Virus record (IMG/VR): IMGVR_UViG_3300048837_000071
Span: 1 to 44,437 of that record
DNA length: 44,437 bases
From: a virus
Taxonomy: Duplodnaviria > Caudoviricetes
Direction: 5' to 3' (one strand)
Position 1 is the first letter of the stretch. Every line of letters starts with the position of its first letter. Positions 1-44,437 of the stretch are shown here, piece by piece. The notes under the pieces are model-generated. The model ran no database searches. It saw nothing but the letters and a program-made list of their open reading frames with translations, and was not told the DNA's origin. Position numbers and translations under genes: made by a program.

Positions 1-158
1 ACGAGCGAAGATGCTCTCGTTTGTGACAACTCGGGCATAGCGTCTCCAAGTTGCCAAGTGAATTGTTTTGTACGTTCTCGTCCTTGTGATGCACATGCAT
101 TCTCGGTCGGCTGTTGCCGCATCGAGCGCAGTTGGGTTCCGCCACCTTGTGTGCCTCC
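1..158. repeat. Terminal direct repeat (circular overlap), left copy
   Basis: 1-158 matches 44280-44437 except at position 26 (a vs g) and 32 (c vs t). Reading frames continue across the join. Confidence 0.97.
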
Positions 159-340
159 CGGTGTCGCGCTGTTGAAGAAGTCCCCCAGTTCCCGCGACTG
201 TTGGCACAGGTGAGCGAGCAATACCGTCGCTTCCGGAAGACCGAGGCATCTTCCAAGCGATTGCCAAATCGCTTGCGGGTCATTTCCATCCCACACCGCT
301 CGCATGACTTGCTCGGCAAGTCTTGTCTGTTTACACACAT
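1..340 (-). CDS. Zinc-finger HNH endonuclease nested in an alternative frame of the methyltransferase gene; continues to the stop at 44260 (119 aa)
   Basis: ATG at 340 with GGAGG 9 nt upstream. Translation: MCVNRQDLPSKSCERCGMEMTRKRFGNRLEDASVFRKRRYCSLTCANSRGNWG...CARCGNSRPRMHVHHKDENVQNNSLGNLETLCPSCHKREHLRSSARCAG. Classic CxxC...HH...N..L..LCxxCH..H. Confidence 0.88.
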   Translation of the reverse strand, partial: MCVNRQDLPSKSCERCGMEMTRKRFGNRLEDASVFRKRRYCSLTCANSRGNWGTSSTARHREAHKVAEPNCARCGNSRPRMHVHHKDENVQNNSLGNLETLCPSCHKREHLRS

Positions 341-1283
341 GGTTCACTTCCTCCGCCGCTTCTCGGTTGGTGCGCAGTAGTCCCACTGCACGGGTAATCC
401 CATCAACCATCTGCTGTGCGATGGGTTCAACTGGCCGCCACTTTCCATCCCGGCACAGGAGCCAGTCAGCATCTCGCCAGTGACCGTGAGTCGTGCTGGG
501 CCTTCGATCGGGAGACACTCCCTCGCGTTCGGCGTTCTCCCTTCGGCGAATTCCTCGCTCCTCACCTTCTCGTTCGCTGTCGGCGTCGGCCATCCCGCCA
601 GGACCGCAACCTCGTTCAACGGCCTCGCGTTGTCGCCCCACTTCTCCCGGGTTGCGCCCTTCCAATCCCTCGCCGATGCTGTCGGCCATGCGCTCAATCT
701 CGCCGCGTCGGTCAACGTCGTCCCTGCATGATGCGTCGGTGTCGCCGGGTAATCTCTCACCCCGGAGCCCGATTGATCCTGTTTCGTCGGCCACGAACCA
801 CAATCGTTGACGGATATGCGGTGCGCCGACGCCCGCAGCAGGGATACCGACTGGCGCAAAGGCGTAGCCGATTCCTTCCATGTCAGCTTGAACAAGGTCG
901 AGCCAGCCGTGCCTAATCGCCGCTTCAACTTGCTCACCAAAGACAACCGGAGGTCGGCACTGCGCGATGAGCCAATGCCAGGCGGGCCATAGGTGCCGCT
1001 CGTCGCGCATCCCAGCGTTAGCGCCAGCCACGCTGAAAGGCTGGCAGGGACAAGACCCCGTCCACACTGCTCGGGAGTCAGGCCATTGGGCCATACGAAG
1101 GGCGTAGGACCACACGCCGATTCCGGCGAAGAAATGACATTGGGTATAGCCTCGCAAGTCTGCGGGTGTGACATCCTCGATGCTCCTCTCGTCCACATCA
1201 CCGGGCGCGATGAGCCCGCACAGAATCAGATTGCGCAACCACTCGGCCGCGTAAGGATCGACTTCGTTGTAATAGGCGGGCAC
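1..1283 (-). CDS. C5 cytosine DNA methyltransferase, alpha/catalytic frame; 5' part, continues across the junction to 44138 (474 aa total)
   Basis: Hand translation from GTG at 1283: MPAYYNEVDPYAAEWLRNLI..., HFFAGIG (motif I), GSCPCQPFS (IV), FGEQV (VI), APHIRQRLWFVA (VIII). No stop down to base 1. In frame with 44138..44401, which has RLRAYGNAIV (X). Confidence 0.92.
   Translation of the reverse strand, partial: MPAYYNEVDPYAAEWLRNLILCGLIAPGDVDERSIEDVTPADLRGYTQCHFFAGIGVWSYALRMAQWPDSRAVWTGSCPCQPFSVAGANAGMRDERHLWPAWHWLIAQCRPPVVFGEQVEAAIRHGWLDLVQADMEGIGYAFAPVGIPAAGVGAPHIRQRLWFVADETGSIGLRGERLPGDTDASCRDDVDRRGEIERMADSIGEGLEGRNPGEVGRQREAVERGCGPGGMADADSEREGEERGIRRRENAEREGVSPDRRPSTTHGHWRDADWLLCRDGKWRPVEPIAQQMVDGITRAVGLLRTNREAAEEVNHVCKQTRLAEQVMRAVWDGNDPQAIWQSLGRCLGLPEATVLLAHLCQQSRELGDFFNSATPGGTQGGGTQLRSMRQQPTENACASQGRERTKQFTWQLGDAMPELSQTRASSL
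344..1174 (-). CDS. Putative beta subunit (TRD/motif IX) of the split C5 methyltransferase, nested in an alternative frame
   Basis: Long ORF (344..1201) fully inside the alpha frame. ATG 1174 has AGGAG 8 nt upstream. WPT repeats and C-terminal LNPSHSRWLMGLPVQW resemble motif IX, which the alpha frame lacks. Analogous to M.EcoHK31I. True start uncertain. Confidence 0.7.
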   Translation of the reverse strand: MSHPQTCEAIPNVISSPESACGPTPFVWPNGLTPEQCGRGLVPASLSAWLALTLGCATSGTYGPPGIGSSRSADLRLSLVSKLKRRLGTAGSTLFKLTWKESATPLRQSVSLLRASAHRISVNDCGSWPTKQDQSGSGVRDYPATPTHHAGTTLTDAARLSAWPTASARDWKGATREKWGDNARPLNEVAVLAGWPTPTANEKVRSEEFAEGRTPNARECLPIEGPARLTVTGEMLTGSCAGMESGGQLNPSHSRWLMGLPVQWDYCAPTEKRRRK

Positions 1284-1286
1284 ACC

Positions 1287-1514
1287 CTACCCCCTTGTCA
1301 TATAGCGTTCGGGGTATAGGATCTGCAATTCGGTGATCGCATGCCCGAAGTGTTTTGCCAGGCGCTCGGCGATCTCCGGACTGGATCGATGCTCCGCGTT
1401 CTCGATCCGGGACAAATTCGACGGGCTCGTCCCCACGGACGCGGCGACTTGCCGCACGGATTCGCCCCGCTCCTCGCGCGCTTTCTTCAGCGGCGTGACT
1501 TTTTTCGCTCGCAT
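1287..1514 (-). CDS. Cro-like XRE HTH regulator
   Basis: LKKAREERGESVRQVAASVGTSPSNLSRIEN HTH; divergent from a second HTH gene. Confidence 0.85.
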   Translation of the reverse strand: MRAKKVTPLKKAREERGESVRQVAASVGTSPSNLSRIENAEHRSSPEIAERLAKHFGHAITELQILYPERYMTRG

Positions 1515-1546
1515 TGCTCTTTCCTTTGGTCTAGGTGCCGGCGAGT

Positions 1547-1563
1547 GTTGCGCTAAACGGGAC
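1547..1563. promoter_or_regulatory. Degenerate 17-bp operator GTTGCGCTAAACGGGAC
   Basis: Shares the GTTGCG half-site and length with the perfect palindromes at 1594 and 1933; lies upstream of the cro-like gene. Confidence 0.55.
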
Positions 1564-1593
1564 TTCGAGTCAAGCGGGAACGGGATTTGCCCT

Positions 1594-1623
1594 GTTGCGT
1601 GTCACGCAACTAACTCGTATAAC
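1594..1623 (+). promoter_or_regulatory. Operator GTTGCGT-N3-ACGCAAC (1594-1610) overlapping promoter TTGCGT-17-TATAAC of the repressor gene
   Basis: Perfect 7-3-7 palindrome. -10 at 1618-1623, only 9 nt before ATG 1633. Confidence 0.75.
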
Positions 1624-1632
1624 TCCCTGACC

Positions 1633-1809
1633 ATGAAAAAAGAATTCGGCAAAGTGCTGCGCGCACTGCGATTGCGAAAAGGGTTGACCCAGGAGCAAGT
1701 CGCTGAGCGCCTGGGCATTCGAAAGTCGGCCGTGTCCCGGTACGAGTCCGGGCAGGACGGGCCGACGTTGTACCTCTGCGCGGCAGCCCTCGCCAGCATG
1801 ACGCGCTAA
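1633..1809 (+). CDS. Short cI-like XRE HTH repressor (58 aa, possibly truncated)
   Basis: MKKEFGKVLRALRLRKGLTQEQVAERLGIRKSAVSRYESG; ends soon after the HTH with no S24 peptidase domain. Confidence 0.8.
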   Translation: MKKEFGKVLRALRLRKGLTQEQVAERLGIRKSAVSRYESGQDGPTLYLCAAALASMTR

Positions 1810-1831
1810 CCCGAACACATCCCCAGCTTGC

Positions 1832-1862
1832 AAAGCCCGCCTAGCGCGGGCTTTTTCTTTTT
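1832..1862 (+). terminator. Rho-independent terminator
   Basis: AAAGCCCGC-CTAGC-GCGGGCTTT followed by a T tract. Confidence 0.9.
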
Positions 1863-1888
1863 CACGATACGGGAAAAATAAATTCCGA

Positions 1889-1949
1889 GTTGCGCTTGAC
1901 AGGACTCGGGATCGCCTTTATCTTGACTGCACGTTGCGTTGAACGCAAC
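1889..1949 (+). promoter_or_regulatory. Sigma70 early promoter TTGACA-17-TATCTT flanked by two operators
   Basis: TTGACA 1896-1901, TATCTT 1919-1924. Degenerate operator 1889-1905 overlaps the -35. Perfect operator GTTGCGTTGAACGCAAC at 1933-1949. Confidence 0.85.
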
Positions 1950-1987
1950 AGCAAGAACCCGACCAATCGCAACAGGAGCCTAACGAA

Positions 1988-2200
1988 ATGTTTGCACCGA
2001 CCTACACCCCGCGCTTTGTCACCTCCGAGCAATTGCTCGAACTCTTCGACCTTTGGCACATCGCGCGCACTGCGCTGAGCGGGAAGGGTTGCACGCGATA
2101 CACCCGGCTTCTGTGGGCGAGCGCGGAGTTCCACAAAGCTCACCCCGAGGTGAGCGCGACTGCCGCGTACAAAGACCTCGACAGTGCTTTGGGAGCGTGA
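1988..2200 (+). CDS. Hypothetical early protein
   Basis: First ORF after the early promoter, with AGGAG RBS. Confidence 0.7.
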   Translation: MFAPTYTPRFVTSEQLLELFDLWHIARTALSGKGCTRYTRLLWASAEFHKAHPEVSATAAYKDLDSALGA

Positions 2201-42191: not shown

Positions 42192-44141
42192 TCACACCAG
42201 CATCGACAGACAACCGTTCTCGACAAAAAACGGTGCCTCGTCGAGTTCGGTGAGTCGGTCGATCGCCCGTTTGACGTGCTGTCGGCGCGTATCCCGACCC
42301 TCGGGCTTCTCCAATCGGACCACAGTTTCAGCGATCACCGCATCGATCTCGATCCCCTCCGACTGCGCTCGTGCCATCTCCTCAACCACGGCGAGCAGGG
42401 CGCGTTCCACCTTACCCACTGCTCGTCGGCGGCCCGCCACCTCGACGACCGGGATCTCGGCCGGCACGGCGACGCACGAGTCGATCACGTCCCCATCGTC
42501 GTCGACCCCGACGTTGACCACCTCGAGATCGAAGCCCCATTGCATGTCGTCCCCGCCGTCCTTCTGCTTCGAGATCCTCGCGACGCGTCCGGTGCCCAAA
42601 CGGAGAACCTCGATCTCCGTGTCGGCCGCGGCGCGAAGCCCCGACCATCCTCGCGCGCCTTTGGTCGCATCCTTGCCCGAGTGGTGCACCAGCATCACGA
42701 CCGCGCCCGTCGCTCGGCGAATCACTTGGCAGTGCCGCAACGCCTTGCCCATGTCCTCGGCCGAGTTCTCATTGCCCCCAGGCATCGTCTGCGCGAAGGT
42801 ATCGACGATCACGAGATCGGCCTTGCCGACCGAGAGAATTGCCCGACCTACGTCGACGGCGTCGGCTTTCTCGAGAAAGTTCGGTTGTGCGGCGATGACG
42901 TCGAACTGCACCTCGGCAAAGTCAAACGAATGGAACCGTTGATAGGCCGCCAAGCGCTTGCGGAAGCCCCCAGCGCCCTCGGCGACGATGTAAACCACTC
43001 GACCCTTCCTCGTCGCGTGATCGCGCCAGGGGACGCCACGCGCGACCGCAGCGCCGATATCCAAGCACAAAAACGACTTGCCCGACCCGGACTCACCGTA
43101 AAGCACGACGAGATCGGCGATCGGGATCACCCCTTTGACGAGCCAGCCGGCCGACTGTGCGCTGGCGTAGAGGTGCGCAGGGACGATCGCAAAGCGGTTC
43201 GGCTTGTCGTCCTTCGCCTGGGTGATGTCCGCCTCGCTGGCGACGTCCTGTCGGATGTGGGCGCCGTTCTCGTTCGCCATCTTGACGAGGGTCCGCGCCG
43301 TGACGAGCTTGCCGTCGCCGCGCTTGAGCGACTTCCATTGCTGGCGAAGCTGCGACTCGCCGGGGTACTTCGATCCTCGAGCGCTCCACTCGTGCCACAG
43401 GTCGAACCCTTCGCCGCCCGTCTCGTGATGGATTGCCATGCCGATCGCAAGCCAGTGCGAGCGAGGTATGTCGGGGTCCAGCACATCGAGCGCGTCCTTC
43501 ATCTGCGAGTGGGTGAGCCCGATCGGCGGCGCGTAATCCATGAGCGGGTCGGACTCGTCCTCGCGCCTGGAAAAACGCGTTCGCGTGTGTTCGATAAGCC
43601 CCGACGACGGCTCGCTGACTAAATTCTCAGCGCCCAGGAGTTCGACGATCTCGATCGCCTGGCCCGTGAACGTAACGAACCCCTTCGTGCTGAAGAGTTC
43701 GAACGCAAACGGGGCGCCGAAGTCCTTTTGATTGCCGAGATCGCCGCGAACGAATGCGTGAATCCCCTCGCCCGACGGGGACCATTCGGCATACGTGCCG
43801 CTGATCATCTGCTCGATCTGCGGCAGGATGCGCCCCTCGGCCACGCAATTGTCGAAGTCGATCGCAGTGACGCCGAAGTCGGGAAGCGGGGCAAACCCGA
43901 TACCGTCGAACCCACCGCGCGCCGCCGCATCGCGTGCTGCCTCGAACCGCGCGAGGTGAGTGCGATCCTCCGGGCGGCCTTGCACGCCTGTGCGCCTCGA
44001 GCCGTTGATGTAGTAAGGCACCTTGCGCGGCTTCTCCCCGTCGCCCTGCTCATAGCGCCACATGAGCCAGCCGGGGAGGGATCGCAAGAACTCAGGCGCG
44101 GCGATCGATCGTAGATGGGGTTTGATCTTGGCGACGGTCAT
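42192..44141 (-). CDS. Primase-polymerase/helicase (AEP prim-pol, PriCT-2, RecA-like AAA_25)
   Basis: KPRKVPY, IDFDNC, YAE.SPSG.G.H; W..IGMAIHHE...W..WS; GESGSGKS, IVDT, VHHSGKD. Start 44141 overlaps the methyltransferase stop (ATGA). Confidence 0.9.
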   Translation of the reverse strand: MTVAKIKPHLRSIAAPEFLRSLPGWLMWRYEQGDGEKPRKVPYYINGSRRTGVQGRPEDRTHLARFEAARDAAARGGFDGIGFAPLPDFGVTAIDFDNCVAEGRILPQIEQMISGTYAEWSPSGEGIHAFVRGDLGNQKDFGAPFAFELFSTKGFVTFTGQAIEIVELLGAENLVSEPSSGLIEHTRTRFSRREDESDPLMDYAPPIGLTHSQMKDALDVLDPDIPRSHWLAIGMAIHHETGGEGFDLWHEWSARGSKYPGESQLRQQWKSLKRGDGKLVTARTLVKMANENGAHIRQDVASEADITQAKDDKPNRFAIVPAHLYASAQSAGWLVKGVIPIADLVVLYGESGSGKSFLCLDIGAAVARGVPWRDHATRKGRVVYIVAEGAGGFRKRLAAYQRFHSFDFAEVQFDVIAAQPNFLEKADAVDVGRAILSVGKADLVIVDTFAQTMPGGNENSAEDMGKALRHCQVIRRATGAVVMLVHHSGKDATKGARGWSGLRAAADTEIEVLRLGTGRVARISKQKDGGDDMQWGFDLEVVNVGVDDDGDVIDSCVAVPAEIPVVEVAGRRRAVGKVERALLAVVEEMARAQSEGIEIDAVIAETVVRLEKPEGRDTRRQHVKRAIDRLTELDEAPFFVENGCLSMLV

Positions 44142-44437
44142 GGTCGGCACTCCATGTAGGCGCCGATCACTTCGGCCGCGACTTGCGCGACGATCGCGTT
44201 GCCGTAGGCGCGCAAGCGTCCCACTCGGGCGGGGGCTCCGTGGCACAGAGGATGCCCGCTCAACCCGCGCATCGCGCTGACGAGCGAAGATGCTCTCGTT
44301 TGTGGCAACTTGGGCATAGCGTCTCCAAGTTGCCAAGTGAATTGTTTTGTACGTTCTCGTCCTTGTGATGCACATGCATTCTCGGTCGGCTGTTGCCGCA
44401 TCGAGCGCAGTTGGGTTCCGCCACCTTGTGTGCCTCC
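44138..44437 (-). CDS. 3' end of the C5 methyltransferase alpha frame (motif X)
   Basis: HPLCHGAPARVGRLRAYGNAIVAQVAAEVIGAYM; in frame with 1..1283 across the junction. Confidence 0.88.
   Translation of the reverse strand, partial: GGTQGGGTQLRSMRQQPTENACASQGRERTKQFTWQLGDAMPKLPQTRASSLVSAMRGLSGHPLCHGAPARVGRLRAYGNAIVAQVAAEVIGAYMECRP
44280..44437. repeat. Terminal direct repeat, right copy
   Basis: Matches 1-158 with 2 mismatches. Confidence 0.97.

Follow-up and report, generated by a model that had tools for sequence, protein, structure and literature searches.

How can a complete nuclease gene sit inside the reading frame of another enzyme and leave that frame open? The locus that raises this question spans the two ends of a 44,437-base virus record that is classed as linear and has a G+C content of 62%; the record was analysed as a whole and is called the window here. 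The window also carries genes for a head-to-tail connector, terminase, tail, endolysin and primase-helicase. Closing its terminal overlap brings three minus-strand frames together within 1,425 nt, namely the alpha frame of a phage methylase, a beta frame and an HNH frame, of which beta and HNH both lie in the +1 frame relative to alpha.

1..158 = 44280-44437, terminal overlap, 2 mismatches in 158
1..1283, minus strand, 5' part of the alpha frame, from GTG 1283: motifs I, IV, VI and VIII followed by a linker and the insert
44138..44279, minus strand, alpha frame, last part: motif X at 44212-44180, stop at 44140-44138
344..1174, minus strand, beta chain (+1 relative to alpha), with WxTP repeats, motif IX and the stop TGA at 346-344
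350..354, minus strand, Shine-Dalgarno sequence GGAGG, 9 nt 5' of the HNH ATG
1..340, minus strand, HNH gene, codons 1-113 from ATG 340, coding for a zinc finger at the N terminus and a zinc-binding HNH core
44260..44279, minus strand, last HNH codons and TGA stop (44262-44260), after circularisation
42192..44141, minus strand, primase-helicase gene downstream of alpha, with a likely ATG that shares ATGA with the alpha stop

A preliminary description of this DNA had placed, after circularisation, a 119-aa HNH gene from ATG 340 to TGA 44260, with GGAGG 9 nt upstream and an alpha frame without a stop across it. All of this was found on the closed 158-nt overlap, with GGAGG at 354-350 and alpha open from 1286 to 44138. 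Both mismatches in the overlap are synonymous for HNH and non-synonymous for alpha. The record is classed as linear, the contig break falls inside the HNH gene and the two end copies disagree at 2 of 158 bases, so that the layout could in principle have been created purely by joining contig ends. Against this, the whole layout lies on single contigs in L003, L004, L104, L105, L107 and other nested loci, and also on the unbroken contig of the cultured Komagataeibacter phage phiKX1 (HNH identity 54%). In Staphylococcus phage CUB-EPI_14 (HNH identity 36%), the HNH gene is nested in a single-chain methylase, again on an unbroken contig. In addition, an independent contig from run X1, which is possibly related to the source, matches window 1-1076 with 11 differences and reaches 87 nt beyond position 1. 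The idea of an assembly artefact is thus largely refuted, and we give it next to no probability. One low-depth contig of an RNA-library run (X9) joins window 156-239 to 1200-1286, skipping 960 nt; there is no microhomology at the joint, and the contig is probably a library chimera.

The HNH frame matches Pfam HNH (E 2e-7) and PHROG 1271 HNH (E 1.5e-13). The cysteines expected to bind zinc (13, 16, 41, 45, 71, 74, 102 and 105) are invariant in 15 of 15 aligned relatives, as are H84, H85, N97 and H106, so the zinc ligands and intact HNH core of the preliminary description are borne out. An AlphaFold model of the protein (pLDDT 76.8) is closest in fold to the Gme HNH nicking endonuclease 4h9d, a modest match (Z 6.0, rmsd 3.0, 61 aligned), followed by McrA, TagI and Hpy99I at weak Z of 4-5. 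Searches of solved structures by sequence and with Foldseek gave only HNH matches too weak to reach E 0.001. Judged from the family profiles and the predicted model, the catalytic motif and fold of an HNH nuclease are intact.

The HNH gene also has a plausible route to translation, through its Shine-Dalgarno sequence and coupling to beta. The junction reads TGA ACC ATG, with one codon between the beta stop and the HNH start, as had been described. The Shine-Dalgarno sequence pairs at -9.5 kcal/mol with the anti-Shine-Dalgarno sequence, and only 3% of internal positions are as good. A pairing energy of -4 kcal/mol or lower was found at 22 of 28 HNH starts, compared with 27% of internal positions, and the HNH start lies 0-2 codons past an in-frame stop in all 26 alpha/beta loci scored. 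A 7-pair hairpin at window 306-322, just inside the HNH start and terminator-like on the plus strand, could affect HNH translation. A sigma-70 scan of the minus strand of window 1-2000 found no promoter-like site. Two RNA-library runs contain short pieces of the HNH region, which, as assembled contigs, indicate presence and not transcription; the comparison covered window 1-1600, a stretch that does not reach a possible splice joint to 44260. Such genes escape annotation: that of phiKX1 holds neither the HNH gene nor the full-length alpha, and in CUB-EPI_14 the HNH gene is concealed within gp45. In the cultured phages L094 and L095, another annotated HNH gene lies at most about 0.7 kb downstream of the methylase.

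The host of the insert is a methylase in two chains. Alpha has 474 codons counted from GTG 1283 and matches Pfam DNA_methylase (C5 methyltransferase) and PHROG 363; its relatives include 353 named phage records, mostly phages of Proteobacteria. Beta is open from 1225 to 344, matches PHROG 31772 and PHROG 1008, and likely starts at ATG 1174, as suggested by a predicted Shine-Dalgarno pairing of -8.3 kcal/mol. The earlier statement that one locus encodes three proteins in two frames stands for the reading frames, and the protein products are putative. With motifs that we take to be I, IV, VI and VIII upstream of the insert and X downstream of it in alpha, and IX at the end of beta, the division is EcoHK31I-like: IV, VI, VIII and X lie in alpha, and IX in a second, out-of-frame nested chain.

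In an AlphaFold model of the insert-bearing alpha of the relative L104, built from 38 sequences and without beta, the core is mostly at pLDDT 80-96, motif X at about 80, and the insert is helical at 32-63. The model aligns with M.HhaI at Z 13.7 (rmsd 3.0, 187 aligned). This prediction fits an insert that is carried as a loop, and activity is not thereby proven. The alignment begins at residue 35 of M.HhaI, and in the window motifs II and III apparently precede motif I (1283-1030, minus strand), so that the alpha family appears to have a permuted motif order.

Where exactly does the insert sit, and what does it do to each chain? Between conserved anchors, the window has 165 codons and most empty alleles have 18; therefore, the insert is 441 nt long. 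Empty alleles, also in contigs of four runs, diverge from the window at 423, and the HNH ATG lies about 83 nt into the insert. The insertion point falls within a strongly conserved stretch that codes for both beta motif IX and the approach of alpha to motif X. In carriers this dual-coding stretch occurs twice: the first part of the insert is a diverged repeat of what lies 3' of the insertion point. This flanking duplication was missed by the preliminary description.

1..422, minus strand, first 422 of the 441 nt of the insert (remainder 44279-44261); boundaries uncertain by a few codons
375..422, minus strand, upstream, element-borne target copy: beta motif IX as the empty-allele consensus at 12/16, alpha at 5/16 (drifted)
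44213..44260, minus strand, downstream, native target copy: alpha lead-in to motif X at 11/16, beta at 7/16 (decayed)

The two copies have divided the two coding tasks between them. Across 23 loci, the upstream copy agrees with the empty consensus at 10.1 of 16 positions for beta and 4.3 of 16 for alpha, and the downstream copy at 8.3 of 16 for alpha and 5.3 of 16 for beta. Motif X is found downstream (8.4 of 11) and not upstream (1.1 of 11). We take the downstream copy as the native one, because a near-intact beta motif persists there in L120, L131 and L143. The upstream copy completes beta motif IX and ends in a stop, with the Shine-Dalgarno sequence and HNH start within two codons and in the same frame, and the alpha frame passes through the insert to motif X in the downstream copy. 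Since the flanks are a duplicated dual-coding target, beta receives a replacement of its 3' end, not a read-through. Three empty alleles (L054, L049, L085) have about 19 extra codons at the insertion site, possibly remnants after HNH loss; in L054 and L085, beta ends before motif X.

An open alpha frame across the HNH gene might be an accident of base composition, for which the preliminary description had estimated a chance of 1-2%. A T in the third position of an HNH codon creates an alpha stop if the following codon starts with AA, AG or GA. Of 25 such risk positions in the window, none carries T, compared with 19 of 67 elsewhere, and alpha stayed open in 11 of 5000 synonymous permutations of the HNH gene (P 0.0022), a value below the earlier estimate. 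We collected HNH matches with a methylase nearby and dropped repeats on the same contig or nearly identical (L005-L010, L099-L103, L106, L109, L112, L127), which left 31 loci. The host frame is stop-free in 30 of the 31. The exception, L124, has a whole methylase upstream of the HNH gene and was moved into the control set. The 30 non-redundant nested loci (median HNH identity 40%) have no alpha stop, compared with 155.5 expected, and T occurs at 0 of 769 risk positions compared with 728 of 2328 other positions. Among the 30, the count for L094 and L114 took in a part of the ORF, contig ends truncate L118 and L128, and a deletion breaks the methylase of L114.

Control genes do not behave in this way. 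Forty-two control HNH genes had 813 stops, compared with 873 expected, and none was stop-free. Because most of these controls are lower in G+C, a context-blind sample was taken as well, consisting of 80 viral HNH loci out of more than 120 matches. Seven of the 80 lie near a methylase, and five of those seven are nested and stop-free. Among the non-methylase loci of this sample with G+C of at least 0.5, none of 24 was stop-free in the corresponding frame. Five lower-G+C non-methylase loci were stop-free, four of them within terminase-like ORFs with intein-like ends. Out-of-frame HNH genes in such ORFs are common among the viral loci L198-L273; 41 of the 80 sampled loci have, in one other frame, an ORF of 150 aa or more that overlaps the HNH gene, 33 of them with an [HS]N[CST] motif after the HNH gene, and L214, L218, L223 and L273 have this pattern in the other frame.

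Two loci serve as natural controls in which the pressure on the host frame is absent. In L124 (1-1000) and L203, a complete methylase including motif X lies upstream, and a relic of a methylase tail lies downstream of a free-standing HNH gene. The two other frames of the HNH gene contain 3 and 9 stops in L124 and 3 and 2 stops in L203 (over 90 codons). These loci are 3'-end replacement without read-through. Together with the 30 nested loci, they provide evidence at population scale that selection maintains the open host frame.

What is selected within the overlap appears to be the HNH protein. Compared with the five closest relatives, the HNH frame is 59-72% identical in amino acids and the alpha insert 35-40%, with fourfold sites close to saturation. 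By this comparison of aligned sequences, constraint lies on the HNH frame. Among the most distant pairs, identity of the alpha insert is 0.188 compared with 0.178 for the null, and the BLOSUM z values over three bins are 1.9, 0.6 and 2.7 for pairs that are non-independent. Constraint on the alpha insert beyond stop avoidance thus seems at most weak, and is inseparable from shared descent.

If the insert were removed as a self-splicing intron or intein-like segment, with HNH as its endonuclease, stop avoidance would be needless, yet it is absolute. Inteins typically begin with Cys or Ser and end in His-Asn. The ends of the alpha insert have neither, and in-frame intein splicing motifs were absent when both ends of the alpha frame were inspected and aligned. 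An Rfam search of 14 loci returned nothing at E up to 1, and the predicted folding of window 1-440 is not better than that of shuffled sequences (z -1.23), so that a group I or II intron ribozyme core was not found around the HNH ORF by these searches. Nearly all of the 441 nt is occupied by the beta end, the Shine-Dalgarno sequence and the HNH gene, which leaves no room for such a core. In favour of splicing, phage HNH homing endonucleases are often intron-borne (PMC2988022), and for a similar insert, ShiLan, the likeness of its 5' end to the 3' flank has been put forward as a hint of an intron (PMC11855218). On balance, we regard removal by splicing as highly improbable. As the alpha frame is stop-free here and in relatives of the same layout, the enzyme probably includes an additional loop and is produced without splicing.

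Alternatively, the insert may have inactivated the methylase, and alpha would then stay open only for the passage of ribosomes into the primase-helicase gene, by coupling or avoidance of polarity. The overlap of the alpha stop with the likely primase start would suit this, and the methylase is broken in L112 and L114. In both of these loci it is broken upstream by a deletion with the HNH gene retained (L112 is otherwise like L111), and the deletions could be assembly errors. Yet past the insert the protein sequence of motif X is conserved (8.4 of 11), full-length carriers have motif IV, and beta motif IX is rebuilt upstream, which is sensible only if the enzyme works. L003 and L004, moreover, have other genes downstream. 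We therefore consider an inactivated methylase very unlikely.

The distribution of the insert among methylase alleles is disjunct, both in the scoring of beta matches and in a tree of methylase cores. A beta search found 80 loci, of which 69 were scorable; the insert is absent from 67 and present in L029 and L043. On a tree of 60 cores including 15 carriers, from which rows identical or without a full core were left out, the insert needs nine changes, and the starred branches force five. A single carrier clade is rejected (AU p 1.6e-10), and no bootstrap tree had one change. The nearest methylase core to that of the window is an empty allele (81%), and L043 is surrounded by four empty alleles that are almost identical. 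The HNH genes of carriers fall into more than one subfamily, and the point of insertion varies slightly between these (L029, L043). Carriers are also more clustered than shuffled labels (9 versus 13.6 changes), and repeated loss or ordinary recombination could contribute to the patchy tree. In L262, where an HNH gene of this family is nested in such a way that the carrying frame is beta, there is an apparent one-base indel near the HNH core. A plasmid search gave no match. A genome collection yielded two loci, of which one (L097) is relevant; this search was of low sensitivity, because the query was a single sequence.

The family to which the nuclease belongs takes several forms. A profile of 15 close HNH proteins found 516 clusters at E 1e-10 or better, and among the best 150 of these, 15 are in-frame beta-HNH fusions, 14 of them with HNH after motif IX (P0028, P0030, P0057, P0066, P0073, P0077, P0079, P0083, P0097, P0099, P0100, P0102, P0103, P0140, P0141). 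In P0027, a member of the HNH family is fused to an alpha-type fragment. Members also occur at other sites, in the single-chain Staphylococcus phage methylase of L095 and inside beta in P0141. With the fusions, the family therefore has four forms: free-standing behind a methylase, nested behind the beta stop, inside beta and fused to beta.

These fusions are as compatible with a function alongside the methylase as with a selfish origin. The preliminary description had offered a compact methylase-nuclease module as one of two readings. As a domesticated module, the nuclease would attack unmethylated host or competitor DNA in the manner of restriction, or would nick like Vsr; beta would lend specificity, and read-through of the beta stop could yield the fusion seen in relatives. 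Its support comprises those 15 fusions among the best 150 of 516 clusters, the constant position of HNH in the frame of beta in alpha/beta loci, the invariance of catalytic and zinc residues in 15 of 15 close relatives, and the weak fold likeness to McrA, TagI and Hpy99I. Nevertheless, a nuclease-methylase pairing is inconsistent, as 67 of 69 alleles lack the HNH gene, the carriers are polyphyletic on the methylase tree, the gene is flanked by a duplicated target, and the family sits at other sites, whether in L095, inside beta in P0141 or free-standing with a relic tail in L124 and L203. We judge a domesticated module unlikely, and weaker than homing.

The other of the two readings, intragenic homing without splicing, tolerated as a loop, is the one best supported by sequence, with homing itself and the splicing-free state putative. 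We propose, as the probable explanation of the locus, that the insert is intragenic and carries a likely homing HNH gene, which supplies a new end for beta and leaves the alpha frame open, probably with no need of splicing. In this model, a 441-nt HNH-bearing insert would have been placed in the conserved dual-coding stretch of a two-chain phage cytosine methylase gene. Ribosomes finishing beta would re-initiate on HNH. Alpha would carry about 147 additional residues, placed in a linker already long and variable, and alpha and beta would assemble as in M.EcoHK31I. During co-infection, the HNH protein would nick or cut methylase alleles that lack the insert, at the conserved target or close to it, and repair templated by the carrier would copy the insert. 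The carrier would itself escape cleavage through the splitting and recoding of its target. Codons able to produce alpha stops are, as seen, avoided. Taken on its sequence features, the HNH gene is likely a selfish mobile element. A selfish life cycle predicts some decayed HNH genes in open alpha frames; no clear case was found, and a search with the alpha-insert alignment returned nine known loci only.

Hidden HNH genes of this kind are already published, so the novelty implied by the preliminary description was overstated. Arsenault, Gosselin and Gogarten (2025; PMC11855218) described, without experiments, out-of-frame HNH genes in stop-free phage methylase frames, and related earlier work is that of Gosselin et al. 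(2023; PMC9957025). Common to the ShiLan domain, the hidden HNH of Pacc40 gp60 and the present insert are an out-of-frame zinc-finger HNH gene inside a phage methylase gene, a stop-free host frame, the absence of an intron or intein signature, a patchy distribution, a 5' end like the 3' flank and an HNH stop at the right boundary (PMC11855218, PMC9957025). ShiLan encodes a 195-aa HNH protein in the third frame, from a GTG 18 nt into the insert with an undetectable RBS, in a mycobacteriophage methylase for which a second chain is not described. By comparison with that description, the present HNH has 119 aa, lies in the second frame and has a strong Shine-Dalgarno sequence behind the stop of a nested beta. 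Here, stop avoidance is measured, and the dual-coding target is duplicated and divided between the frames. What differs, then, is that this target is now present twice, with beta motif IX upstream and alpha motif X downstream, and that the Shine-Dalgarno sequence comes right behind the beta stop. The five records listed by our HNH search included no mycobacteriophage.

Other known systems share single features with the locus. M.EcoHK31I likewise has beta coded in another frame within alpha, with motifs I-VIII and X in alpha and motif IX in beta; as described in PMC2836561, it has no nested nuclease and the TRD is in alpha, whereas here an HNH gene is nested and variable WxTP repeats, which look like a recognition region, are in beta. 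The present enzyme also belongs to a phage orphan family, PHROG 363/1008. In free-standing homing endonucleases of the T4 mobE type, as described in PMC2988022, the HNH start abuts an upstream stop as it does here, suggesting translational coupling; these genes lie between genes, whereas the present one is intergenic only for beta and intragenic for alpha. Inteins with out-of-frame endonucleases share the overprinting of an endonuclease in a stop-free host frame (bioRxiv 10.1101/2025.01.02.630785), but there the insert is removed by protein splicing, and here splicing motifs are absent. The literature found outside subscription journals described neither an HNH gene in an alpha/beta methylase nor a divided duplicate target or a beta-coupled start, and the BLAST hit lists of PMC11855218 could include members of the present family. 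The present alpha remains one frame. In phage Aeh1, by contrast, nrdA is reportedly split by mobE, an HNH gene within its host gene with no intron or intein, so that the host gene is in two pieces.

The splicing of hidden HNH inserts, their translation and the survival of the methylase were left open by PMC11855218, and they are addressable in cultured carriers, the Komagataeibacter phages phiKX1 and phiKX2, whose host is harmless. The HNH family forms a series from free-standing through nested to beta-fused. We raise, as a tentative extension of the homing model, that the gene spares its host twice, by replacing the 3' end of beta and by a read-through loop in alpha, and that the series may be a route from selfish nuclease to fusion, with the beta stop as its switch. 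If this is true, the family would be a living route from a selfish nuclease to a methylase-nuclease fusion enzyme.
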